From: Podarcis erhardii
Taxonomy: Eukaryota
DNA: 64,000 nt
Assembly (NCBI GenBank): GCA_964252035.1
Contig: OZ176201.1
Direction: 5' to 3' (one strand)
In this document: piece by piece, positions 9,755 to 54,048 of the stretch
Position numbering within the stretch: position 1 is the stretch's first letter
Layout: every line of letters begins with the position of its first letter
Translations under genes and position numbers: made by a program
Notes under the pieces: generated by a model
The model's database searches: none
What the model saw: the letters and a program-made list of their open reading frames with translations, nothing else
What the model was told of the DNA's origin: nothing

Positions 9755-10839
9755 GCCAAATTTGCATTTATTTTGTTCTCTATTACATTAACGAAAGATA
9801 AAATAAAAATAAAAGCCATAGCTACCAGCAGTTTGTTTTCTGGATGTGATTTCTCTGTGGCTTTGAACAGTCCCAGGGCTAGAAGACATTCATCTCCATG
9901 AGGTCCTAATGAAATCCAGCTAGTCACAATGTCTTTTGATAGCCTTGACACTCTTCCCTCTGTCAGTTGCTGTATGAATTATTTGTTGTTTCTGAGCAAG
10001 TCTTATGAGCGTCCCTCTGTGAGACACACAGCTTCCCAGAGCTGGAAATATTTTGTGGCTCTCTTTCATCATAGTGTTATTCACATCCGACTCATAAGAC
10101 GTCAGGGACGGCATTTTCTGATATCACAGAATTGTTTCGTGTTGCTTGCTCTGGAACTCTTAATGACAAACAGATTCATTCAGGGTGTGTGCACATTACT
10201 ACCTTAAGAGCAGAGTGAAGTTGTTTTTTTCAATCTGTTTCACAGCCCATCTGCCCGTCCACCCACCTCCCCCCCCCCACCATCTGGTTACATCAACATG
10301 GCTTCATTAGTGTCGGATTCATTTCTGTTTATGCACCTGCCATGGGGCATTGACAGGGTGATGATATATTTACAATGGTGTTCACACCTTGGCTAAAGAC
10401 AAATTAGGAACAGCTTACAGACTTCAGTCGGTGTGAAGCTGGTTTGAGAAACACATCAAATGGTAGAATCTTATTAAAAAGCAGAGGATACATATGCATT
10501 TTGGATAAGGTTGTGTGAACATGGATTAAAGACCCAGCATTAGAAACACAGTGAGTGCACAGTAAACAGGTCTGTGAACACATCCTCATAATCTAGAATA
10601 GTAAATTTGTGCATTTACACTTGTAGCCAGCAAAAGGTAGTTGTGCAAGTACGTATCTCCATGATTTGTAGCAGCTCCACAAGAGTTTCCACTTCCCTCT
10701 TGTTTTAACAATAGCAACAATATAATGGGTTTCTGCCACCATGACAAGCCTTTTAAATTAAATTGATAAAATTAAGCAAGTTTGGGAGAAAACCAGTAAT
10801 GGAGTTCTCTGTGAAAGAGCAGCAGGCTTAGTTCTGGTA

Positions 10840-11065
10840 CAGTGGTACCTCGGGTTAAGAACTTAATTCGTTCTGGAGGTCCGTTCTTAACCTGAAACTG
10901 TTCTTAACCTGAGATACCACTTTAGCTAATGGGGCCTCCCGCCGCCACCACACCACCGCCACACATTTTCTGTTCTCATCCTGAAGCAAAGTTCTAAACC
11001 CGAAGTACTATTTCTGGGTTAGCGGAGTCTGTAACCTGAAGCGTCTGTAACCTGAGGTACCAGTG
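10840..11065. mobile_element. Tc1/mariner (pogo/Tigger-like) MITE
   Basis: TIRs cagtggtacctc/gaggtaccagtg flanked by TA on both sides. Confidence 0.85.
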
Positions 11066-11127
11066 TACTGAGAACATATTATCTCAGAGGTGCCAGGTCC
11101 CACACTGCCCTCCAAGTCCCCATAAGT

Positions 11128-12450: not shown

Positions 12451-13258
12451 GACATAGCATAAAATGCAGGATTTGTGATATGTGCTTCAGAACTCTTTTT
12501 ATTATTTTCCTGCATCTACTACATATTTTGGAAAGCTGTTTGTCCATTTAATATGCATTTGGACACCTCAGAACAGATCGTAAGCAAATTTGTTTTGTTT
12601 TTGTAAGTCACTTTGGGTTCACCTTTCTGAAAAAAGCAACTAAATAAGTAAATAAATAGAATAATAATTTTGCATTATGGTTCCTGAAATCAAGGAGCAA
12701 GAATCCATCTATGCTTGGGTGCAATTGGACTCCATTTTGAATCAAGATGGTGGATCAAACCTTTCAAAACTACACTGATCTTTACCACTGATTCCAAAAC
12801 TGCATTGATTTTTTGGTCTTAGAATTCCCAAACAACACTAGGTACAAGGCTGCTAGTGTTTTATATATGCAATTTATAATACAAACATACCCATTTACTA
12901 TTCATCTTTTTCTTGTTATCTATATTACATATCTAAGAGAAACAATAGCTCCATAAAAGTAGAAATATAGAAATCAACACTGTAATATGAATCATACATC
13001 TATTTTGTAACATGAACCAAAACAGAATCAGTTCAAATGCTGAATGGGAACTAAACTTATATTGACCTGAACATCCAAACTGCTAAACTCAAAGTGGAAC
13101 TGAGCTACAATATTTAGCAATGCTTTTCACTGGGGGGATATCCATTAGTACATTGTGCCACTTCTAATCTTTTGTGACTGCAAACAAAGGAAACAAAGTA
13201 TCCCCAAAGTTTATTACCAGAAAACTCAACCAATTCCCTAGTAACATTCTATATATAT

Positions 13259-14046
13259 TGTCACAGCCACCCAGGTGGGTCCCAGCTCACGAGAGACCTT
13301 ACTCCGTTATAGTTTACTTACAGGAAAAGTTTATTGAAGATAATTGCTTCTTTCACAGTTCAGCATTGTGGCTGTACGTCTGTCACGTTAGACCGCCGAA
13401 GTCCCCCTCTGACTCCTCCCCTCCTCCACACCAACTTAATAGCCTGGCTCTAGACCACCTCTTCCTCTCCTTTCTTTTCCGCAGGGTCTTTCTGCCCCCC
13501 TGGGTTCTCTCTTTCCGGGATTCGCCTGAGGCTGAATCCTCTGCCGCCTCCTGCCCCCTCCTTCTGGCTTTGGGGCCGGGCTCCTCCTCTGAGCTTTCCC
13601 CACTTCCGCGCGCCTCTATGTTTGAACTTGGCGCGCGTACGTTGCTTTTGACCTTTCCTTCGTCCTCTATACTGCCCCCTGTTCCACTCTCTACCCTTTC
13701 CGGCTGAACACCTTGCTCCAACCCCCTCTCTCTATTTTCTCCTGTTCCTCCTCCCTCCGAGAGGCTGACAACTCCACCCCCTTTACTCCGTTCCGGCTGA
13801 GACCCCTCTGACAGCGTCTGTGCTTCACTGGGCTTTCTCCCCTCCTTCCCTGACTTTTCACAGCTTCTCTCTTCTCCTGCTTTTCGCCTGATCATGCTAG
13901 CTCCCTTTTGGGAATCCTCTGACTCACTGCTTAGGCTCATAGATTCCCTTCGAATTCCGTCATCTTCTTCCTCGTCTCTCTCTCCCTCCTCCCACTCGCT
14001 TTCCGTCTCCTCTGCCATCTCCTCACTTCTCCCAGAAACCCTGACA
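13259..14046 (-). repeat. 3' LTR (788 bp)
   Basis: Direct repeat of 19010-19797 with no difference found by eye; AATAAA on - strand at 13335-13330. Confidence 0.97.
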
Positions 14047-14486
14047 TCCATCCCCCCCTCGAAGCCCCCCCTTCCCCCCTCCCGGTCGCTGGGTGCAGGT
14101 TGAGGGAAATGTGGTTCTTCCTGGGTCGGTTCAGGATACCGGGTGTCCACGTCAATCTTCTCCTCTGGCAGCTCCGTATACGTGTGTTCGAACTCGGGTT
14201 CCCCCCCTGAAGGCATCACAGTCTCTTCCTCCCTCACTGCTTCTCCTGGCGCTGCCTGCCAAGGACCTATCATCCACCTCTGACTCCATACCTCCCTTGG
14301 CTGATCCACCCACCAATAAGGGTTTGTCTCTCCCCCCCCCCAGGCGGGGAACCCTGGTCGGGCTTGTTTTGGGCGTAGAGCCCTCGGGCGAGGAGAAACC
14401 CCCGAACGTGCTGCCCGACAAAGTGGGCGTGAAAAGCCAATCATCAAAATACTCCTCGGGCATGGGTTTGTGCGGAAAAATTGCAT
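13383..14486 (-). CDS. Extra ORF / Pol-tail frame spanning the pol 3' end, PPT and U3: acidic low-complexity protein ending in a basic patch
   Basis: 367-codon open frame; E/D/S/G-rich; RKTLRKRKERKR near the C-terminus; TGA at 13385-13383. Expression is not demonstrated. Confidence 0.6.
   Translation of the reverse strand: MQFFRTNPCPRSILMIGFSRPLCRAARSGVSPRPRALRPKQARPGFPAWGGGETNPYWWVDQPREVWSQRWMIGPWQAAPGEAVREEETVMPSGGEPEFEHTYTELPEEKIDVDTRYPEPTQEEPHFPQPAPSDREGGRGGFEGGMDVRVSGRSEEMAEETESEWEEGERDEEEDDGIRRESMSLSSESEDSQKGASMIRRKAGEERSCEKSGKEGRKPSEAQTLSEGSQPERSKGGGVVSLSEGGGTGENRERGLEQGVQPERVESGTGGSIEDEGKVKSNVRAPSSNIEARGSGESSEEEPGPKARRRGQEAAEDSASGESRKERTQGGRKTLRKRKERKRWSRARLLSWCGGGEESEGDFGGLT
14047..14060 (-). 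other. Polypurine tract
   Basis: GAGGGGGGGATGGA on - strand directly abuts the TG of the 3' LTR. Confidence 0.85.
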
Positions 14487-17400
14487 GAAACTCCTCCTTC
14501 AACAGGGGTTCGTCCAAAGCGTAATCCGGCACCCAGCTATTTGCAGAGACTGGAGTGCCTTCCCTGGCGAGAAAATATTCAACTCCCTCCTCCCCCCATC
14601 GTGAATCCAGTATCTCTGTGACCTCATTAAGAGGTTCTGGTCTTGGCGACTCCCCTCTCTCAGGCGCCCTTCTACGTGGCTCTGGAGGTGCTCCTGACTC
14701 TTGAAACCTGTGTGGGGCTTTGTAGGGAGTGAGCACCGACCTATGAAAGACCGGGTGCACCCTGGAGCCCTCCGGAAGGGCTAGGCGAAAAGCCACCGGA
14801 TTGATCTTAGCCTCAACTTGATATGGTCCTAGCTGCCTGTGTTCTAACTTCTTTTTGGCCAACGACCTGGCCGGCATCGCGTGGGCTGCTAACCATACCC
14901 AGTCCCCAACCTGAATGTCTTCCCCCACCCTTCTGTGTTTGTCGGCTTGCACCTTATACGCCTGCTTTGCCAGCTCCAAATGTCTCCGCAGCTCCTCGTG
15001 CACCTCTTGCAACTCTGCTGCAAACTGGTCGGCATTTTGAGGTCCCCCCCCTTCAGGTGCTGTAAAGCTCGGGAAGGTTCTGGGATGACGTCCATAGTTC
15101 GCGAAGAAAGGCGTCACCCCGGTGGATGCGTGCTTCGTGTTGTTGTAGGCGAACTCAGCCATCGGCAGGTAGTCCACCCACGCCGCGGGTCGCTGGTTGG
15201 CGTAACACCGTAGGTACTGCTGCATGATCGCGTTGACCCTCTCCGCTTGACCGTTGGTCTGTGGATGCCTCGCCGACGTCAGGTTGATCTTGACGTGTAA
15301 GATACCCAGAAGCTTCCGCCAGAAAGTGGAAACAAATTGGCGCCCCCTGTCGGACAAGACGGACTGCGGTAGTCCATGCACTCTGAAGACGTGATCGATG
15401 AAGAGCTTTGCGGTCTGTTCTGCCGTCGCCACCTTGGCACAAGGAATGAAGTGCGCCATCTTGGTGAACAAGTCCACAACCACTAACACCGCCGTCTTAC
15501 CTCTGGAGCTGGGCAGGTCTGTAACAAAGTCCAACGCTACCCTCTCCCACGGTTGCTGCGGTGTCTCCAGCGGTTCTAACAATCCCGCCTGCTTCTGATG
15601 CACTGGTTTGGACCTCTGGCAGATATCGCACCTGGCTACGTAGTCCGCCACCTCTCCTCTCATCTGGGGCCACCAAAAGTCCCTTGCCACCAACTCCATC
15701 GTCTTCTCTTTGCCGAAATGGCCCGCACTCGGGGCATCGTGCAATTGTTGCAAAACCGTGGCGCGAAGCTCGTCGGTGGGCACGTAAAGGGCGCCCTTGC
15801 GAGTCAAAAGTCCATCCTGCAACTGAAACTCATTGTTGTCAGGCGACCCTCTGCGGAGCTCCTCCATCTTGGATTGTGCAAACTGATCCTCTTGCAGCGC
15901 GCGTCGCACCGCGTCCAGGTCGACTGCGATGGTAGCGCACGTCCACGCCTGCGGTGCGAAAATGTACTTTGCTGCGATTGGAGCTACTTCCTCCAGGTAT
16001 TGAGGCTTTCGGGACAGCGCGTCTGCTATAACATTGGAGTCTCCAGGGATGTATTCTATTTTGAAATCGAAATCCGCAAAGAATTCCGCCCAGCGCATGT
16101 GTCGTTGGGTTTGCAATTTAGCCGTCCGCCAATACTCCAAGTTCTTGTGATCCGTGCGGACCTGCACCGTGTGCTTGGCTCCTATCAAGAAGTGTCGCCA
16201 CGCTCTGAAAGCTGCATGAATGGCCAACAACTCCCTGTCCCATATGGTGTAGTTGCGCTCCGTCTTGCTGAGCTTGCGGGAGTAGAATGCACCCGGTCTC
16301 CAGTTGCCTTGCGAATCCTCTTGCAAGAGGACGGCCCCAACTGCTCTGTCTGATGCATCTGTCTCTACCCGCATGGGCCTGCCAGGATTCACGTGCAGCA
16401 GCTGCTCCTCGGAGGCGAAAAGGCTTTTAAGCTTCCGAAAGGATCGCTCTGCTTGTTCGGTCCAGACGAACTTCTTCTTCTTGGAACTGAGGGTGTCAGT
16501 GATTGCCGCCGTCGCGTTTGCAAAACCTTTAATAAACTTGCGATAAAAATTGGCAAAGCCGATGAACCTCTGGACCTCCTTCCGATTTCGAGGGCTCTTC
16601 CAGTCCAACAGCGCTTGGACTTTAGTCTTGTCCATGGCCAGTCCCTCGTCGGACAGCTTGTAGCCAAGGAAATCTACCTCTCTCACATCAAACTGGCACT
16701 TCTCCAACTTGGCGTACAGCCTGTGTTCCTTCAGCCTCTGCAGAACTTCCTTCACGTCCTTATCGTGATCCTCTGGCGATTCCGAGAAAATCAGGATATC
16801 GTCGAGAAAACAGACACACTTCTTGTAGAGGAGACCTGCCAGGACGTGATGCATGAATGCTTGGAAAACATGGCTGCCATTTTGTAGACCGAAGGGCATA
16901 ACCCTGTATTCGTACGTGCCCAAAGGAGTGAACATGGCCGTCTTCCACTCGTCGCCCTTCCTGATGCGGATGAGGTTGTAAGCTCCACGTAAATCCAGCT
17001 TGGTAAAAATCTTCCCCCTCCTGACTGTAGCCAAAAGGTCGTCAATTTTGGGCATGGGGAAAGCCTTGGGCTTAGTTAGTCTGTTTATGAACCGGTAGTC
17101 CACAATGAGCCTCTTCTGGGGCGTGTCTTTCTTTTTCACAAAGAAAACAGGACTGCCTCCCGCTGCTTTAGATTCCTGGATGAATCCGCGCTTGAGGTTG
17201 TGTTCTATGAACTCCCGAAGCTCTTGCAGCTCGTCTTCCGACATGGAGTACAGCTTGGCAGTTGGCAACTGCGCGCCTGGCACTAAGTCAATCGCGCAGT
17301 CGTAAGGTCTGTGAGGCGGCAATTTGTCAGCTTCCTTTTCGCAGAAAACCTCCAAGAACTCCGCGTACTTGTGAGGAACCGCTTGCACCATACTCAGATG

Positions 17401-17931
17401 CCGCTGCTGTTCGTCTTCTCCTCCTTGATCGGTTTGGATGCAATTCTGGGCGCAATACGATGAACAAAAGGTGATCTGCCTCTGGTACCAAGCAACCGCG
17501 GGACTGTGCCTGTCCAGCCAACTCATGCCCAACACGATGGGCGTGTCCGATAAGTGGGTGACATTGAAACTAATAAGCTCTCGATGGTCTCCAATTTGCA
17601 TCATCATGGGAGGGGTTTGCTGCACCACTTGCCCCCCCAGCAACTTCCTGCCGTCTACCGTGACCACGTTCAGAGGCGTCGTTGCAGGCAGGAGCGCTAT
17701 GTTATGCTGCTTGACGAACTGTAATCCCACGAAATCGGCGTTGCTTCCCGAATCGATGGTTGTTGGAACCTCGAGAAGCCGCCCATCAGGCAGCTGGAGT
17801 GTTGCTGTGAGTAAAACTGCTGGTTTGGGAGGTAAAGGGTCCATGTGCTGCAAGGATGCTGGGGACTTCTCTACAGATCCGCCTGGCTGAGCCCCAGTAG
17901 CTCTGCTTCCAGCCAGGCACTGCAGTTTCCC
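14152..17931 (-). CDS. Pol (protease-RT-RNase H-integrase-chromodomain), reached from gag by a -1 frameshift
   Basis: IDSGS protease; KLDLRGAY and FLDDILIF RT; TDASD, RELLAI and TDHKNL RNase H; HDAPSAGH...CDIC, LDFVT, SDRG, ERVN and GPY integrase; C-terminal chromodomain fold. The ORF-track start at 18048 lies upstream of the slippery site. Confidence 0.95.
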   Translation of the reverse strand, partial: GKLQCLAGSRATGAQPGGSVEKSPASLQHMDPLPPKPAVLLTATLQLPDGRLLEVPTTIDSGSNADFVGLQFVKQHNIALLPATTPLNVVTVDGRKLLGGQVVQQTPPMMMQIGDHRELISFNVTHLSDTPIVLGMSWLDRHSPAVAWYQRQITFCSSYCAQNCIQTDQGGEDEQQRHLSMVQAVPHKYAEFLEVFCEKEADKLPPHRPYDCAIDLVPGAQLPTAKLYSMSEDELQELREFIEHNLKRGFIQESKAAGGSPVFFVKKKDTPQKRLIVDYRFINRLTKPKAFPMPKIDDLLATVRRGKIFTKLDLRGAYNLIRIRKGDEWKTAMFTPLGTYEYRVMPFGLQNGSHVFQAFMHHVLAGLLYKKCVCFLDDILIFSESPEDHDKDVKEVLQRLKEHRLYAKLEKCQFDVREVDFLGYKLSDEGLAMDKTKVQALLDWKSPRNRKEVQRFIGFANFYRKFIKGFANATAAITDTLSSKKKKFVWTEQAERSFRKLKSLFASEEQLLHVNPGRPMRVETDASDRAVGAVLLQEDSQGNWRPGAFYSRKLSKTERNYTIWDRELLAIHAAFRAWRHFLIGAKHTVQVRTDHKNLEYWRTAKLQTQRHMRWAEFFADFDFKIEYIPGDSNVIADALSRKPQYLEEVAPIAAKYIFAPQAWTCATIAVDLDAVRRALQEDQFAQSKMEELRRGSPDNNEFQLQDGLLTRKGALYVPTDELRATVLQQLHDAPSAGHFGKEKTMELVARDFWWPQMRGEVADYVARCDICQRSKPVHQKQAGLLEPLETPQQPWERVALDFVTDLPSSRGKTAVLVVVDLFTKMAHFIPCAKVATAEQTAKLFIDHVFRVHGLPQSVLSDRGRQFVSTFWRKLLGILHVKINLTSARHPQTNGQAERVNAIMQQYLRCYANQRPAAWVDYLPMAEFAYNNTKHASTGVTPFFANYGRHPRTFPSFTAPEGGGPQNADQFAAELQEVHEELRRHLELAKQAYKVQADKHRRVGEDIQVGDWVWLAAHAMPARSLAKKKLEHRQLGPYQVEAKINPVAFRLALPEGSRVHPVFHRSVLTPYKAPHRFQESGAPPEPRRRAPERGESPRPEPLNEVTEILDSRWGEEGVEYFLAREGTPVSANSWVPDYALDEPLLKEEFHAIFPHKPMPEEYFDDWLFTPTLSGSTFGGFSSPEGSTPKTSPTRVPRLGGGRDKPLLVGGSAKGGMESEVDDRSLAGSARRSSEGGRDCDAFRGGTRVRTHVYGAARGED

Positions 17932-18947
17932 TGAAGCTGCTCCTCTGATTGCACCTCTGCTGTCACAGTTGCTAGTGCTGCAGTGTGCTTCTGGAGCCTC
18001 TGGGGGCACTCTTTCGCCATATGGTGTGCACTGTCGCAGATGTAACACTTCCTGGTCCCTCTAGGAGGCTTCGCTTTGGCTGCAGCAGGGATGGGGCTCT
18101 GGGATGGCTTTTGAGCCCTAGCACCACCAATCTCCATTGGCTCCTCGCCTTCCTTCCCCATTGGTGAGGGGTGCGCACGGCTGAAATCCCTGTGCACAAA
18201 AGGGAGAGCTTTTGCTTGCGCGCGCGCTTGGGGCCCCCCCTCCTCGTGCCACGGACGTCCCTCATGTCGAATTCCTATAGCCAAAGCCCGTTGCACCACG
18301 TCTTCCAGGGTCTGGGGTCTGTCCCCCCTTGCGATCTCATCCTTGACGGAGGGGCTCAATCCCTCCCAAAAAAGATCCCTGACCGGTAGACTGTCCTTCG
18401 GCCAATCTAAGGCGGTGAGCAATGCAAAAAATTTAGAATGATATTGGCGTACAGTGGCTCTCCCCTGCCTCAGCCCGTGCATCTGCCGGCGCGCAATGTC
18501 CTTATCCACAGAGGATTGAAAACAAGCATCCATTGCCTTGATAAACGCATCTGCATTGCGACGGGCTGGTCCATCTTCGCGCCACAGATTGCGTAGCCAA
18601 GCCCTGGCCTCCCCATGCAGGTGCGAAACAATAAATCCCACTCTCTCCTCCTCATCTCTAAAATCATGACGGAGTAAATGCAGTGCATACACGACATCTG
18701 CCCTGAAGTTGGGATAGTCTTGCAAGTTGCCATTAAAATGCGAAACTAGGGCACCCCCCCTCCTTCCAAGCGCAATGCCCTCCGCTCTGGAGCCCGGGGT
18801 CCCCGCCTTGTCCGCATTTTCCCACCTTGCTTGCAAATCCTGGCACGCTTTCTCCAAGTCAGCATTCTTCTTCTGCGAAGCAATGACTGCCGTTGTGAGA
18901 GTGGTAATCTGATCCCGGAGTGCAGCCAGCTGTTCCTCAGCACTCAT
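17871..18947 (-). CDS. Gag (N-terminal coiled coil, retrotransposon gag domain, CCHC zinc knuckle)
   Basis: 358-aa intact ORF starting 62 nt after the 5' LTR; CYICDSAHHMAKEC = Cx2Cx4Hx4C. Confidence 0.95.
   Translation of the reverse strand: MSAEEQLAALRDQITTLTTAVIASQKKNADLEKACQDLQARWENADKAGTPGSRAEGIALGRRGGALVSHFNGNLQDYPNFRADVVYALHLLRHDFRDEEERVGFIVSHLHGEARAWLRNLWREDGPARRNADAFIKAMDACFQSSVDKDIARRQMHGLRQGRATVRQYHSKFFALLTALDWPKDSLPVRDLFWEGLSPSVKDEIARGDRPQTLEDVVQRALAIGIRHEGRPWHEEGGPQARAQAKALPFVHRDFSRAHPSPMGKEGEEPMEIGGARAQKPSQSPIPAAAKAKPPRGTRKCYICDSAHHMAKECPQRLQKHTAALATVTAEVQSEEQLQGNCSAWLEAELLGLSQADL
17881..17931 (-). promoter_or_regulatory. -1 ribosomal frameshift signal: G GGA AAC heptamer, 6-nt spacer, 9-bp stem
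   Basis: GGGAAAC at 17931-17925 in the gag frame (CAG GGA AAC); GCCTGGCTG (17918-17910) pairs with CAGCCAGGC (17889-17881). Confidence 0.85.
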
Positions 18948-18996
18948 GGCTGCCCCGTTCGTGAGCTTCGCAAAAAAAAATTTTTGCTTTCAGAGG

Positions 18997-19007
18997 GAGG
19001 GGGACTT
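18997..19007 (-). other. Self-priming primer-binding site (not tRNA type)
   Basis: AAGTCCCCCTC, 2 nt after the LTR end, is the exact reverse complement of GAGGGGGACTT at 19160-19150; no TGG-type tRNA PBS. Confidence 0.85.
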
Positions 19008-19009
19008 TC

Positions 19010-19797
19010 TGTCACAGCCACCCAGGTGGGTCCCAGCTCACGAGAGACCTTACTCCGTTATAGTTTACTTACAGGAAAAGTTTATTGAAGATAATTGCTT
19101 CTTTCACAGTTCAGCATTGTGGCTGTACGTCTGTCACGTTAGACCGCCGAAGTCCCCCTCTGACTCCTCCCCTCCTCCACACCAACTTAATAGCCTGGCT
19201 CTAGACCACCTCTTCCTCTCCTTTCTTTTCCGCAGGGTCTTTCTGCCCCCCTGGGTTCTCTCTTTCCGGGATTCGCCTGAGGCTGAATCCTCTGCCGCCT
19301 CCTGCCCCCTCCTTCTGGCTTTGGGGCCGGGCTCCTCCTCTGAGCTTTCCCCACTTCCGCGCGCCTCTATGTTTGAACTTGGCGCGCGTACGTTGCTTTT
19401 GACCTTTCCTTCGTCCTCTATACTGCCCCCTGTTCCACTCTCTACCCTTTCCGGCTGAACACCTTGCTCCAACCCCCTCTCTCTATTTTCTCCTGTTCCT
19501 CCTCCCTCCGAGAGGCTGACAACTCCACCCCCTTTACTCCGTTCCGGCTGAGACCCCTCTGACAGCGTCTGTGCTTCACTGGGCTTTCTCCCCTCCTTCC
19601 CTGACTTTTCACAGCTTCTCTCTTCTCCTGCTTTTCGCCTGATCATGCTAGCTCCCTTTTGGGAATCCTCTGACTCACTGCTTAGGCTCATAGATTCCCT
19701 TCGAATTCCGTCATCTTCTTCCTCGTCTCTCTCTCCCTCCTCCCACTCGCTTTCCGTCTCCTCTGCCATCTCCTCACTTCTCCCAGAAACCCTGACA
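19010..19797 (-). repeat. 5' LTR (788 bp)
   Basis: Direct repeat of 13259-14046; contains TATA-like box, Inr and AATAAA (19086-19081) on - strand. Confidence 0.97.
19158..19192 (-). promoter_or_regulatory. LTR core promoter: TATTAA plus Inr, predicted TSS at A19161
   Basis: TATTAA at 19192-19187; GTCAGA fits the BBCABW Inr with A+1 31 nt downstream of the first T. Confidence 0.7.
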
Positions 19798-19946
19798 TAT
19801 ATGATACAGGCTTTCAATAAAAGCAAAATACTTTTCATCTGTCATTTTGAGTTGCTGTAAAAACCTAGTCCTGTAGTGCCACTTAGAGGATAGATCTAGT
19901 AACTGTGAACAAACCTTTTGTGATATGCTGCTATTCACTGCAACTA

Positions 19947-20188
19947 CAGTGGTACCTCGGGTTACATACACTTCAGGTTACAGACGCTTCAGGTTACAGA
20001 CTCTGCTAACCCAGAAATAGTACCTCGGCTTAAGAACTTTGCTTCAGGATGAGAACAGAAATTGTGCTCTGGCAGAGCGGCAGCAGCAGGAGGCCCCATT
20101 AGCTAAAGTGGTACCTCAGGTTAAGAACAGTTTCAGGTTAAGAACGGACCTCCGGAACGAATTAAGTACTTAACCTGAGGTACCACTG
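19947..20188. mobile_element. Tc1/mariner-type MITE (same family as 10840, opposite orientation)
   Basis: TA-cagtggtacctc...gaggtaccactg-TA. Confidence 0.88.
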
Positions 20189-21162
20189 TATTTCATTGTG
20201 TGAAACATTCAGTAAGCTAACTTGCTAGTTGTGACAGCTCATTGGATTTCATCTCAAGTTAGTGTATGTAAACAATCTTATTTTTAAGGTGTTCAGGCAA
20301 TTGCTGGGTTGAATTCTCCATGGCAAATGATTCTCATTGTAGATCCTTGTTTCTCCACTCCTGCCTTCCAACTTGATTTGGACAGCTCAGAATGAGCTGT
20401 TCCTTTGCTCTAAAGAACAAAGCCCTTCTTAAAGGTTGGTGCAGGCAAACAAGGCCTGTGGGTTTAGATTTGCTTTATTAATACTGATGTTGGGTTAGAC
20501 TTGTATGCACTCAATTACTATGTAAGAAAACATGTGTATGGTCACGTTACCATCTTTCATGGGGGGGGCATACAGAGAAGTCTCCTTGAACCTGTAGTAG
20601 CCTCTGGTTCTGACAGCCACTACAAGCAGCAGCAGTTGTAAATCCATCTCCCAGCTTTTGCCTCATCCCATGCTCCTAGAAAGGAAGGCGAACATCCCTA
20701 TCCACTCTACCTTGTAGCAACACCTCACTTTTTATTGCCAGAAAAATAAACAAGGAAATTGCTGCTGTTTCATTATATTCATTTGATGATTTGTGTCTGA
20801 GATCAAAATAAACTGTTGAACAGGTTATATACTGGCTCTTGAGATGGTTTAGAGGTACAAAGGAATAGGCCAGTAGGGAACAGCATGGTGGAGTGCAGCC
20901 ACACCTCCGGTCAGGTGTGTGGCTGCTGCTTACTGGGAGGTAACGGGGTGAGGAATCAGCGAGACTGGTGTGCAGCAACCAGTAGAGCCAGTTTGGTGCT
21001 CCAGTTAGGGTGTGTGTACCATGCCAATCTCCCCACCAACCTCCCCCTCCTGGTAAGCAGCAGCGCCACAACTCACTGTCAAGTGAGCAGTGGCCCTTCA
21101 CCATGCCATCCACTACTGGACTCAGGGTACAACATTTCATATTTAGGATGTTTAATCTAGGC

Positions 21163-22802: not shown

Positions 22803-23239
22803 TGCTGCTGGAAGGGTAAGTCCGCGTTAAATAGGAAAGAGAAAGCGAGCGGGGCATGTTGAGGTCCAAGCTGCCATAGAGAAGCCTGGCGATCCCCTAC
22901 CCCACTCCAAACACCGGGCAGAGTGCTGCCCTCACATGTTTTTCTAAGAAGCCGGGGGCGGGGGGGGGGCTGATTCAGCTAAAATCCCGGTCGGGGGTGG
23001 GGCTTGCGGGGTCCATTCCGCCCCTCCTCCCCACATGCTGAGCACCGCAGAGGCGGGCAACGCTTCACCTTTTGGCTCTCCCTCGCGGCGCCAGGCCCGG
23101 GTGCCTGGAGCGAGCGAAGGCAGCCCTCCGCCCCCTCGCCGCCCTTCGCCTCCTCCCCTGGCGCGCCCTCCTCTTCCTTTCCCTTCCCTCCCGAGGGGGC
23201 GGTGCGGACGCTGCTCGCCCCTCCCACCCCGGCTTGGCC

Positions 23240-23381
23240 CGCTCTGCAGCCGCCGCCGCCGCCGCCGCCGCTTGCTCGCTGCCTCCTGAATTTCTTCCGG
23301 CGGGCTTTGGCGCGCCTCTCGGACTGGAGCCGGCGCGGACGTGCGGGAGGCAGCCGTGGAGCGGGGCGCGCAGCGGGCGCC
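23240..23381 (+). other. SFXN1: Probable non-coding exon 1 of SFXN1 (start approximate)
   Basis: Donor GCC|GTGAGT at 23381/23382 inside the CpG island; no ATG in the segment; exon 2 has only 13 nt before its ATG. Confidence 0.65.
23249..23269 (+). repeat. (GCC)7 repeat
   Basis: Seen directly. Confidence 0.95.
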
Positions 23382-24099
23382 GTGAGTAACCCTGGGCAGC
23401 AACCAGAAGCACCTCTCTCTCCCCATCCCTGGCCGCTCGGGAGGTAGGCGCTCCTTCCACGGCGCTTCACCCAGCCAGCAGCCCCAAAGTGGGGGGTGAC
23501 CCTCCCCGCTCTCCATCCCCCGAAGCGGGTGCAGGGAGGGAGGCCGGCTTGGCGCCCCGCAGCTGCTGCTGCTGCGGCTCTGCAGAGGACGGAGAGCTAC
23601 GCCTCCCTTTCTCCCCGGTGCCCGTCTCTCGAGCGCGCTAGCGGCATCCTCTTCCCCCGGGGTGCATCTGCCTACAACAGTAGCCTCTCCCCCAAAATAC
23701 AATACATAGGAACCAAGGTCCCTTCGGCCTCCCAATAAAATATTTGAGTGCCCCCCCCCGCGGTTGATGGGCATTTCCACTCCAACGGTACGCGTGCGCC
23801 GTGTCTTGTGATCGATGATGCGGGGCGGGGCATACATGGGCCCCCCAATATTTTATTCAAGTTGGCACCCTTGATGCAATGTGGCATCGCAATGCCCATT
23901 TAGCTAACCCACTCCAGCATTCCTGTCCTCCTGTATACCGTGGGCCCAGTGAATAACCCAAAATGTCCCTTTCGGGTATGTGTGCGTTCCCAGTAGATGG
24001 ATCTAAAAGTATTGGTTTAGTTTTTTAAAAAAGAATAAATAAGAGAAAGAGACGTTCGTTTGGGTACTGAGCGCTTTCTCCCTTCTTCCAGCTGCCTGA

Positions 24100-49964: not shown

Positions 49965-51343
49965 GTCGTATGCCTAGGAAAACTGCCAAATTATATTTCT
50001 ACATTTGGAAAATGATTCTGGATTACATTGTGACCGAAGAACATTTTTGATGTTAGTATTAACACAATGTCTTGCCAGTGTTGATGGAATTTATTGTGGT
50101 ATTTTAAAAGTATGCTGGATGAAATATTAAAAGCAGTGACTGGCATGAATGGTGGTGGTCTCTGTTTGAAACAAACTTTAGGAGGGCAATGTTTATGCTC
50201 ACAGGGATATTCTTGTGTATGGGTAAGCTACTTTACATTAGATGGTTTCTTCCAACCAGATACAAACTAAGTGTAAACAAAAAAAAAGTGTATTGCATGC
50301 CTGAGAATGAATTGTAGTTTCCCCCTTAATGGTTTCAGCAGAAAAATTATCAAATCTCTGCTTGTGTAAAAGTTTTAAGTGGACAAGAGGCAATTTATAT
50401 AACACGCAAGTACAATAACATCCATTTTTCCATCTGTACTCCTTAATTGGAGGTGGGGATTCATTTTGATTCCAGACTCCTGGCCCAGTTCAAAATTCCA
50501 ATCTCTTCTATAGGAGCTTCAAAAGTGGAGTGTTCTCTCTCTGCATTTCCAGAACGTTGTTGCTTTTAGGTGGGATTCAATCACATACCAGCAAATTCGA
50601 GTGGTGCAGTTCCAGTTGACTGGCAGGCCTTGCACAAGAAGCCCGCTTCCCCAAAGGACTGGGCTTTTTTCCAATAAGAAAAGTAATAGGAAGATGCACT
50701 GTGAAATATGGGATAGCATTTCCTTGACACAACTTCATCTAGCCTCCCCACAAACAAATCAGGATGAATGCTCCATAAACAAGTCATCTGGGCATGTGTA
50801 TCTCTCCCACCCCAGCACACTCCCCTGAATGCCAGAAACACATTATTTTACCTAAAACAAAGCAAATGAAGATAATGGGTCAGGGTGCAACTCATCTGTT
50901 TGCCAACATCAGCTTAGAGCAGAGGAATCGCTAGCCTTGACAATCACTTTCTCTCCGCTGTGGGAGAAGGAGGACTACAAAACAAAGCCCCCTGCACTTT
51001 TTACTTATTAAACCTACTTTCAAATCCATTTTTCCTCCCATTGAGGGGTGAGGGGGGGAAATCAATTTCTTCTGCTCACAAGTCACAGTGGGAATGAATG
51101 CAGTCTCTGGGAAGAGAAGGAACTAGGGCAGGAAGAAAAGTGTCATGGTGTGATATTTCATGAATATAGTGCAGCACTTCTGTGTTCCTGCAGGCAAGCT
51201 ATGGGAGGTGGAGAAGCAGGGGAGGGGATAAAGAGACAAGAGGGGTCACTTTTCCTGCTTATTTTTTATTTGTGCAGACCCATTGTAAGTCACAAATCTT
51301 TGGTGAAACTTACTATTTCAGGCTTGTTATGTGGAATACAGTA

Positions 51344-51558
51344 CAGTGGTACCTCGGGTTAAGTACCAATTTGTTTCGGAGGTCCTTTCTTAACCTGAAA
51401 CTGTTCTTAACCTGAAGCACCACTTTAGCTAATGGGGCCTCCTGCTGCTGCCATGCCGCCGGAGCATGATTTCTGTTCTCATCCTGAAGCAAAGTTCTTA
51501 ACCTGAGATACTATTTCTGGCTTAGCGGAGTCTGTAACCTGAAGCAATGTAACCTGAG
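51344..51558. mobile_element. Tc1/mariner-type MITE with its right TIR cut off by BovB
   Basis: TA-cagtggtacctc...gtaacctgaggt, then BovB tail. Confidence 0.85.
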
Positions 51559-51947
51559 GTTTTGTTTGTTTAGTTGTTCAATCGTGTCCGACTCTTCGTG
51601 ACCCCATGGACCAGAGCACGCCAGGCACTCCTGTCTTCCACTGCCTCCCGCAGTTTGGTCAAACTCGTGCTGGTAGCTTCAAGAACACTGTCCAACCATC
51701 TCATCCTCTGTCGTCCCCTTCTCCTTGTGCCCTCCATCTTTCCCAACATCAGGGTCTTTTCCAGGGAGTCTTCTCTTCTAATGAGATGGCCAAAGTACTG
51801 GAGCCTCAGCTTCAGGATCTGTCCTTCCAGTGAGCACTCAGGGCTGATTTCCTTAAGAATGGATAGGTTTGATCTTCTTGCAGTCCATGGGACTCTCAAG
51901 AGTCTCCTCCAGCACCATAAATCAAAAGCATCAATTCTTCGGCGATC
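51559..51947 (-). mobile_element. BovB (RTE clade) LINE 3' end
   Basis: RRIDAFDLWCWRRLLRVPWTARRSN...RWLDSV...AWRALVHGVTKSRTRLNN* is the BovB RT C-terminus; (AAAC)n-type tail. Confidence 0.92.
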
Positions 51948-51976: not shown

Positions 51977-52670
51977 CCTCCCCTTTCCGGTTTTCTGTTA
52001 TAAGGAAATAACACTCCAAGTGTTCATCACTGCTCTCTTTGGAGGACCAAATCTCATGCTCACCCAATATGTGAATCCAAGAAGCTTCGTGGAAAAATGG
52101 GTACTGCAGACCCACCCCCACGAGGTAGTATGAAACTTACATATGGATGCAAGCTTAATTCATTTAATTTTATCCCCTGCATTTTGAGAGGATGGAATTG
52201 TGCGAAATAGTCCTCTGCATGTACTGATGTATATGTGTGGTAACTGCACCACATTCCTTCCTTCCTTCATATTTAGTTCACTTTTCCACACACAAAAACC
52301 ATGCTGAAGTGGCATACAATGAAGAAAGCAGTAATACATTTTAAACGATAAAACATAAAAACTCTTGCATAACAATATAGCGAAACAATAACATGGTAAC
52401 AATTTCCTACTAATATTGCAAAACAAATACAATAACATACAAACAACCACAATTCAATACTGTAACGTTAACTAGATCACTTAAGCAACATGCAGCAACC
52501 CATAGCAAAAACAACAAAGGCGCTTCACCGTTTCAGGTTAGTCCTGGAAACGGGGGAGGGGGGTAGCTTTTTTCATCCTTGAAAATTACATACAGCTGAA
52601 AGGAAGTTGAGAGATTAATACATGTCCCACTTATTCTTTCAGCTTTTCAAGACTTAGTTTAATTCTACTA

Positions 52671-52896
52671 CAGTGGTACCTCGGGTCAAGTACTTAATTC
52701 GTTCCAGAGATCCGTACTTAACCTGAAACTGTTCTAAACCTGAAGCACCACTTTAGATAATGGGGCCTCCTGCTGCTGCCGCACCGCTGGAGCATGATTT
52801 CTGTTCTCATCCTGAAGCAAAGTTCTTAACCTGAAGCACTATTTCTGGGTTAGTGGAGTCTGTAACCTGAAGCGTATGTAACCCAAGGTACCACTG
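52671..52896. mobile_element. Tc1/mariner-type MITE
   Basis: TA-cagtggtacctcgg...ccaaggtaccactg-TA. Confidence 0.88.
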
Positions 52897-54048
52897 TAGA
52901 TCTTAACATCTATGCAGCTTCCTTAGAAAACTCAGCTATAGGTGTGAAACTTTCTGTCTTTTGGGGGGTGGCTGACCTAGGGGAGGCAGACAGCAGTGAC
53001 CAAAGAAGAGGGTGCCCACAGAACCTGCTCAAAAATCAAAATGTGCTCACATACCTGAAAAGGTTGACAAGCCTTTTTCTGTACCATACATGGAAGGCTG
53101 AGGAAGCAGGGAGCCTGGAAAATCATTTTCTTCTGAAGGAAAAAAATATTTGATGAAGAGGAAGATTTAGAGCCCACTTTACTGTACCTTAAGGAAACCT
53201 CAGTTCAGCAAAAACAGGCATGTATGTACTACAGGCTCATGCTGTTTAGCCCCTTTGAACAATACTAAACCTGAGTCTGAAGACATTTTTCAGCATCATC
53301 TGGTCTTCTGTGAGAACAGAATTATATAAAATGCAGATGATCATTGGGGGATAGATTAGATTCTCATGCAAAGCTTCTCATCATGCTCAGGGCTCCCAAA
53401 ACCAGATCTTACCTTCAACTGTTGCCATGCAAGCAACTGCCCTTCCTGTGTGCCAGGCCTGAAGCGGGCATACAGAGAAAGGCTCATCCTATATGGCATA
53501 GAAACTTCATAACAAAGACAATAACTGACTTGGGTCATTACCATTTTAAACTGTGCATACTGACCAAAAAATTAGAAGCTTTCCCCCTGAGAGTCATTTT
53601 CAGTTTTCTCTCCCATTAGTTTGATTTTCTATTTCTTTATCGTTTCCAAAATTACAATAGCCATTTCCTCAAAGGGCAAATGATTTAATTTAATAGCATT
53701 ACAGAAACATCTCTGACACTGCATTAACAAGCACAGTGATTCACAAGGCTGTGTTTGATGTTCACCAGATGGAGAAATGACCTGCTTGACAACGTACGCA
53801 ATCCAGCCAATCTGCATTTGCATGACTTTATTGAGGTGATATTCTGACTAATAAGAATAAGAAATAATGGTGACACCTATGAGAAATATGTTCCTCTAGG
53901 GGCGGCTCAAACTGTTTGCATTGCCCACAAATGCAGCCTACCAGCCACTACCAAATGCTTTGCCAACCCCCCCCCCCACATCTGGCCAAGCTCTCTCCCT
54001 TCACACCTTGCCCCACCAAAAAACCCCTTCCTTTACACTACCCCAACC

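Follow-up and report, generated by a model that had tools for sequence, protein, structure and literature searches.

A minus-strand open reading frame at 13383–14486, reported to read through the polypurine tract (PPT) and the whole U3 region of a long terminal repeat (LTR), was noted in a 64,000-nt stretch of Podarcis erhardii DNA (GenBank assembly GCA_964252035.1, contig OZ176201.1; the whole stretch is hereafter called the window). The locus raises the question of whether such a frame is a gene of its own, the end of a longer protein, or a by-product of promoter composition, and what a product encoded within a promoter might do. The choice of insertion sites by vertebrate Ty3/gypsy elements is largely an open matter, to which this lizard family contributes a short candidate motif and a named candidate host partner.

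Architecture of the Element

The frame was found to lie in a complete Ty3/gypsy LTR retrotransposon with gag and pol genes (window 13259–19797, minus strand), which is bounded by two identical LTRs and flanked by a 5-bp target-site duplication (Table 1). The primer binding site (PBS) changes along with the primer in the LTR across lineages (GAGGGGGACTT, AGATGGAGCTT, AGACGGAGCTT, ACTGACGGATT, and GCGGGAGCAA; an 11-nt match, with the start site predicted), and this covariation is the mark of Tf1/sushi self-priming (PMC6317226). The self-primer named in the initial annotation is real in this sense. In the 5′ LTR, U3 is located upstream of the predicted start site; genomic RNA would not be expected to contain it. 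The GGGAAAC heptamer in the gag-pol overlap is taken by us to be a frameshift signal, by its likeness to the PEG10 signal, and −1 frameshifting at this site is inferred to yield Gag-Pol. The chromodomain of the window copy scores under the Pfam cut-off; 13 of 24 relatives match the Pfam family (best E-value, 1.4e-11), and a chromodomain fold is predicted.

Table 1. Features of the element in the window and of its integrase tail.
Feature	Position	Strand	Remarks
5′ LTR	19010..19797	-	788 bp, identical to 3′ LTR
PBS	18997..19007	-	complementary to an 11-nt stretch of the element's own LTR; Tf1/sushi-type self-priming
gag	17871..18947	-	Ty3 capsid, zinc knuckle
predicted -1 frameshift site, GGGAAAC + stem (-26 kcal/mol)	17925..17931	-	at gag-pol overlap; kept across related lineages
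pol	14152..18060	-	PR, RT, RNase H, integrase, SH3, chromodomain; premature end in the window copy from a frame break
chromodomain	14473..14628	-	all three aromatic-cage positions lost; Pfam score under cut-off
predicted helix + 8-residue S/T linker + FxGF (EEYFDDWLF-TPTLSGST-FGGF)	14395..14457	-	Pol frame; TIM/IBM-like; PMC9987994
G run with the frame break of the window copy	14332..14341	-	unbroken in most copies
remaining integrase tail	13383..14331	-	true part of the initially annotated ORF: W-rich segment, PPT, 220 codons of U3 and first R bases
polypurine tract	14047..14060	-	translated GGFEGGMD
3′ LTR	13259..14046	-	coding U3 ~13410-14046
MSLSSESEDSQKGA block	13899..13940	-	synonymous sites saturated, pN ~0.12 vs other lineages
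basic patch RKTLRKRKERKRW	13455..13493	-	NLS-like; conserved in kind across all lineages of the clade
predicted short helix RARLLSWC	13430..13450	-	motif [LIV]L[CSN]W; overlaps TATA position (TATTAA 13436-13441)
self-primer in 3′ LTR	13399..13409	-	11 nt, translated EGDF
AATAAA poly(A) signal	13330..13335	-	48 nt past stop codon
target-site duplication, 5 bp	13254..13258	.	partner 19798-19802; empty site in three other runs

Elsewhere in the window, a CpG-island-like GC-rich stretch (22900–23900; GC 0.66), situated about 3 kb from the 5′ LTR, is probably a host promoter. MITE-like dispersed short repeats with terminal inverted repeats, together with SINE/LINE remnants, were also seen (10828–11067, 19944–20190, 51331–51570, 52659–52898, and several families of 40–120 nt).

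Assignment of the Frame to Pol

The minus-strand frame is open from 13383 to 14498 and comprises 371 codons from stop to stop, or the 367 reported when counted from the ATG at 14486. Within the 788-bp LTR, 220 codons were counted where about 221 had been given; the other two minus frames, described as closed, contain nine and eight stops in U3. The stop falls 24–26 nt past the predicted start-site equivalent, when measured from the start of the self-primer, and ahead of the poly(A) signal, as described, and the coordinates that place TATTAA within RLLS also hold. Purine richness had been considered insufficient to account for the frame, and shuffling at fixed dinucleotide composition had been suggested as a check. 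The T content is only 11%, and shuffled sequences reached the observed length in 1 of 5000 trials for the LTR, 7 of 5000 for the U3 part, and 0 of 5000 for the whole region.

In most copies of the family the frame belongs to an uninterrupted Pol of 1558 codons, which crosses the PPT, the entire U3 with the TATA position, and then the self-primer. By hand count, the 150 matches of the U3 peptide in the genome included 57 in the 1558-aa frame, five in the 371-aa frame, and three in other long frames, so that 57 of 65 long frames were of the 1558-aa form; the remaining 85 were in frames of 221–327 aa, which were taken as 5′ or solo LTRs. Nineteen of 20 fetched full copies showed a continuous Pol through U3. 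The window copy is interrupted in the G run at 14332–14341, and such a break was common among its ten best DNA matches (eight broken, the window included), a set biased to the window's form. Three different haplotype backgrounds carry the break (9 of 37 copies, from the same biased set), which speaks against a single broken lineage and makes recurrent slippage or an assembly error the likelier origin. Short-read contigs of one other sample carried the unbroken form at nearly full depth.

As a result of the frame break, the first 49 codons of the initially annotated ORF are off-frame, whereas its portion at 13383..14331 is the real integrase tail. The true frame of the DNA under those 49 codons encodes the FxGF motif; the most informative motif of the tail was thus missed, although it lies inside the annotated coordinates. 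The natural integrase tail past the chromodomain is 357 residues long, of which the last 220 are LTR-encoded. The U3 frame is almost certainly the C-terminal end of Pol, and not an ORF of its own comparable to nef or sag, as the initial annotation suggested; no start codon is universal among natural copies. Annotation of LTRs that treats U3 as non-coding truncates such integrases. Podarcis gene models were also seen to absorb pieces of these elements; in one case, a lineage D integrase is joined to a model named “vomeronasal type-2 receptor 26-like”. Such fusions are likely annotation artefacts.

Copy Number and Recent Activity

A motif search gave 509 matches; among those listed, nearly all were the LTR of the window's family, which corresponds to about 250 elements. 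The U5 signature of the clade is carried by 4317 LTRs. Other samples lack the insertion present in the window, and an empty site was seen in three runs. The family is large, young, and recently active, so its choice of sites shapes a living lizard genome.

Of the 150 best matches to the lineage D integrase tail, about 75 fell on one contig (C19; 30 Mb, 2% of the genome; hand count), with several identical segmental copies at 26–27 Mb; this contig may be a W chromosome or another non-recombining region. In the older families B and C, many full-length copies sit no more than about 1 Mb from contig ends, whereas those of the window's family seem, by eye, to be spread along the chromosomes.

Selection on the U3-Encoded Peptide

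The initial annotation had proposed that U3 is protein-coding and that copies of the family be examined for retention of the ORF, frame-preserving indels, and dN/dS. The window's family alone cannot show selection, because it is nearly invariant, and a wider sample was therefore drawn by the U5/R pattern, so that LTRs were not chosen by an open frame. From the first 100 of the 4317 matches, six window-family LTRs were replaced by the window LTR, and five without an LTR start and two that were mis-called were dropped, which left 88. The frame was open to the end of U3 in 71 of these, with lengths of 207–232 codons. Seven of nine U3 indels common to at least three loci were triplets, the exceptions falling in a G homopolymer and at a single base of the last codons; triplets made up 5 of 20 private U3 indels and none of four shared R/U5 indels. 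A codon model fitted to 60 distinct open copies gave ω of 0.41 for U3 (2ΔlnL of 175.5 versus ω = 1).

Changes on internal branches numbered 134, 173, and 310 at codon positions 1, 2, and 3, and those on terminal branches (80/94/145) showed a similar third-position excess (p = 0.17). Under parsimony, no such excess was seen on the long branch to the window's family (36/37/36). Values close to neutrality were obtained for the middle of the U3 peptide (pN 0.54–0.60 versus pS 0.66–0.74). Within the window's lineage (30 copies), ω was 0.18 for the chromodomain, 0.46 for the pre-LTR tail, and 0.41 for U3; the corresponding values in lineage D (17 copies) were 0.14, 0.30, and 0.37, with 2ΔlnL of 63 for U3. 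In the blocks SLSSESEDSQ, EPGPK, RWxxxxxLxWC, and FxGF, residues are kept with synonymous swaps, including changes between the codon families of Ser and Arg.

These data reveal purifying selection across family copies and lineages, as expected of a coding U3, and the comparisons make a selected protein function for the U3-encoded part very probable. Antisense coding was rejected as the source of the third-position bias, since the antisense frame that shares third positions has stops in 49 of the 60 copies. Avoidance of nonsense-mediated decay as the cause of the read-through was set aside by reasoning: it would give no cause for residues to be conserved, and the 3′-UTR that follows the gag stop is far longer. 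The 10-mer repeat noted at 13698 and 13791 is present, but the QPER duplication is private to the window's family and has no standing as a conserved unit.

Breadth among Relatives

Continuous Pol frames were also found in young family E (1541–1547 aa, into U3), in family B (1529 aa), and in Podarcis muralis database proteins. Lineage D, whose integrase is 56% identical and whose LTRs measure about 405–437 bp, has a Pol that reads through U3 and the primer; the basic patch and LLCW that close its tail lie as far from the primer as in the window's lineage. The two lineages and one ENA protein form a clade with support of 100/100 in the integrase tree, where the window's element groups with squamate elements (87/91) beside frog and fish clades; sushi-ichi and Amn are absent from this tree. 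A sister squamate clade (99/96) contains family F, with a Pol of 1620–1632 aa in a single long gag-pol frame. Its U3-encoded part measures about 108 codons and halts just short of the TATA box, with RRSARL as the terminal residues. This ending resembles the nucleosome acidic-patch motif of HMGN proteins. Family F is a second young, abundant self-priming chromovirus, and its chromodomain cage is intact. Anolis proteins, available as protein sequence only, have a 115-residue tail that ends in RRSARI.

In most fish, frog, and fungal relatives, the tail ends within about 25 residues of the chromodomain; tails of at most 26 residues were counted in 72 of 119 rows, a few of which have a mis-placed chromodomain end. 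Many fish and frog relatives pass the PPT by a few to tens of codons without common motifs. Across lineages, the number of LTR-encoded codons ranges from about 100 to 232. Two chromovirus-like Pol proteins were noted to carry a dUTPase domain after the chromodomain.

Structure and Motifs of the Tail

In the structure model, whose confidence is low in the tail, the chromodomain is folded and directly followed by a helix; a second helix is W-rich, the U3 part is disordered, and RARLLSWC forms a short helix. Searches of Pfam and the ESM Atlas returned no family for the tail. The aromatic cage of a chromodomain consists of Y-W-Y (PMC3605345); all three positions are lost in the window's lineage and two in lineage D. 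The cage is lost in all seven aligned members of the FxGF clade, whereas the aromatics are kept in seven of eight rows outside it, the exception being one fish row with a non-canonical first position (four rows, including both from Anolis, were left out of the alignment).

The motif helix is predicted, at low confidence, at tail residues 58–64 of the model, and contains two invariant Phe residues. At the first site, FxGF is kept in 45 of the 49 unbroken tails, its codons varying synonymously; one such motif arises in 2–4% of shuffled tails. The linker is 8–9 residues long in all rows; that of the window's family (TPTLSGST) is S/T-rich without acidic residues, whereas lineage D has two FxGF motifs with acidic linkers. 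The U3-encoded part comprises a serine-acidic block, a variable spacer, the basic patch, and the LLxW helix, such that strongly acidic blocks are followed by strongly basic ones. The basic NLS-like patch reported at the terminus proved to be conserved. TATTAA is not conserved letter for letter among copies; the second Leu of LLxW is encoded by TTA in 47 of 49 copies, which implies that promoter and protein both constrain this motif. In 2 of 18 lineage D copies the AT-rich core has been lost, and LL is kept with CTG or CTT.

Likeness to Host TIM Motifs

As characterized in PMC9987994, a TND-interacting motif (TIM) consists of a helix, an acidic or phosphorylated linker of 8–16 residues, and FxGF, the last being essential for binding to LEDGF/HRP2; such IBD-binding motifs are further treated in bioRxiv 10.1101/624023 and PMC10854676. 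The TIM proteins JPO2 (CDCA7L), KMT2A, IWS1, and JIL-1 share with the element a predicted helix with a conserved Phe, an 8–9-residue linker, FxGF, and a disordered setting; JPO2 carries a tandem motif pair, and lineage D likewise has two. The element's motif differs in that it resides in a retrotransposon integrase and, in the window's family, has an S/T-rich rather than a D/E-rich linker; it is a candidate TIM.

Lizard zf-4CXXC genes, inferred to be CDCA7L-like and CDCA7-like, were found to carry LADIF-NTPSDDED-FLGF, LREIF-REDTESENEA-FEGF, and IAKIF-YEDSDDES-FCGF. A profile of the element's motif ranked these 1st, 6th, and 4th, respectively, of 3065 six-frame segments, none significantly. The top hit, an exon of the CDCA7L-like gene (E = 0.18), has the same F-x8-F-x-G-F spacing as the element. 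The likeness between element and host motifs is a lead. PDB searches by motif and by profile returned no TIM complex and nothing relevant. Complex prediction for the window's FxGF peptide and the IBD of lizard PSIP1 scored 0.01, from a run without alignments by a method unproven on peptides, and was given no weight for or against binding. The CDCA7-like gene (contig C1, 118.87 Mb) also has a helix-acidic-FxGF arrangement; a review of such motifs, as far as consulted, names only JPO2/CDCA7L.

Proposed Function and Alternatives

The tail is probably a module for nuclear import and chromatin tethering. Genomic RNA, which has U3 at its 3′ end, would yield Pol through −1 frameshifting, and integrase would retain the tail after proteolysis. 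Mostly disordered, the tail would stand in for the chromodomain, which lacks the methyl-lysine cage. Its basic patch may serve as an NLS or nucleic-acid binder, and the helix-linker-FxGF segment, located just before the LTR-encoded part, would bind the TND/IBD of PSIP1 (LEDGF) or HDGFL2, perhaps with phosphorylation of the S/T linker as the switch. Such a tether would bias insertion toward transcribed chromatin that bears H3K36me marks. Two further protein-binding motifs may be the LLxW helix and the serine-acidic block. The identity of LEDGF/HRP2 as the partner is a serious candidate assignment, which on the motif evidence falls just short of being probable. A broader and more tentative scenario is that this lizard lineage swapped methyl-lysine reading by a chromodomain for a JPO2-like FxGF tether to LEDGF/HRP2, with the U3 promoter serving as the gene of the tail, and that the sister squamate lineage uses another LTR-encoded tail (RRSAR[LI]).

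An unlikely, though by no means negligible, explanation is that the tail is translated as the end of Pol but is only a harmless disordered spacer with an NLS. On this view, the element has no stop ahead of the LTR, selection maintains an open frame and a soluble peptide, and structure or the promoter, instead of host binding, accounts for FxGF and LLxW. The modest ω of 0.4, the near-neutral middle third of the U3 peptide, and the variable number of LTR codons would suit a spacer, as would the TTA fixed at the TATA position and the motif-free passage of the PPT in many fish and frog relatives. A spacer would, however, not lead one to expect residues conserved through synonymous swaps in the four blocks, an FxGF doubled with host-like spacing in lineage D, or an LL retained through CTG/CTT where the AT-rich core is gone.

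A distinctly improbable role is one within the particle, where the tail might act in integrase multimerization, packaging, cDNA/RNA binding, or integrase shielding, or be cut off by protease as an accessory peptide. The succession of acidic and basic blocks could bind Gag, RNA, or the integrase core, and a chromodomain without a cage can work by other contacts, as described for Ty3 (bioRxiv 10.1101/2021.07.27.453949); the resemblance of the first motif to host TIMs, and the parallel with CRM, in which an LTR-encoded domain accompanies centromere targeting, point instead to chromatin.

It is very improbable that U3 holds a separate gene of the nef/sag kind, whose translation would start at an ATG of its own on a spliced or read-through RNA. 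An ATG in strong context does occur at LTR codon 10 in the window's family, a Met is present within the first 20 LTR codons of 44 of the 60 open copies, and the frame is kept in solo LTRs. But the early Met is missing in the other 16, the frame is in phase with Pol in every lineage, the U3 of the 5′ LTR precedes the predicted start site, and it is only the off-frame reading that supplies the ATG at 14486. That the open frame is a mere by-product of young, purine-rich promoter DNA is hardly credible, since the near invariance of the window's family and its low T content, which would fit, are overridden by the shuffles, triplet indels, ω, and codon-position bias across diverged lineages.

Comparison with Known Systems

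The integrases of Ty1, Ty5, and MLV have disordered C-terminal tails with an NLS and a short targeting motif, none of them known to be LTR-encoded, and in HIV nef and MMTV sag coding sequence overlaps U3 in the form of separate genes on spliced RNAs. The lizard tail is like the former in kind but is LTR-encoded, and is unlike the latter in being Pol's own end; of the comparisons made in the initial annotation, that with integrase tails serving import or targeting is the apt one. With the lentiviral integrase-LEDGF system (PMC9987994), the element would share the proposed end result, an integrase tethered to a reader of H3K36me2/3; HIV integrase binds LEDGF via a folded surface and not an FxGF motif (PMC10854676). 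If mimicry of the LEDGF/HRP2 ligands is true, the cofactor of HIV was reached by an independent route. Our literature search found no FxGF motif in a retrotransposon integrase.

With Tf1/sushi elements (V-clade; as outlined in PMC6317226 and PMC3601003), the lizard element shares the PR-RT-RH-IN-SH3-chromodomain order, a self-complementary PBS, and a TG..CA LTR with a late AATAAA; in the integrase tree, from which sushi-ichi and Amn are absent, it groups with vertebrate chromoviruses. It differs in its long coding U3 and in its cage-less chromodomain, a condition that is known in Ty3 (bioRxiv 10.1101/2021.07.27.453949). The literature search found no vertebrate Pol that reads through U3, though Tf1/sushi surveys in subscription journals or Repbase entries may mention such an overlap.

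The initial annotation knew of no close precedent, but one exists in the plant CRM chromoviruses, which place an integrase targeting domain in the 3′ LTR (PMC3059260); the polyprotein runs into the LTR, and the LTR-encoded domain replaces the chromodomain (PMC3059260, PMC3605345, and PMC6317226). CRM group A (CR motif/CHDCR; Beetle, CRR, and CRM) and the lizard element are both Ty3/gypsy chromoviruses with a polyprotein that crosses the PPT into the 3′ LTR. CRM elements are primed by tRNA-Met, form a plant clade, and have a CR motif instead of a chromodomain, having lost the normal one, whereas the lizard element is self-primed, belongs to a squamate clade, and keeps a degenerate chromodomain upstream of the PPT. 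All of U3 lies within the frame of the lizard element, as do the TATA position and the primer, and its tail has no likeness in Pfam or the Atlas. The relation to CRM is thus one of working alike, and not of clade membership. What appears to be new is a vertebrate case of the known Pol-into-3′-LTR architecture, in which a whole promoter evolves under coding constraint, in parallel to the centromeric chromoviruses of plants.
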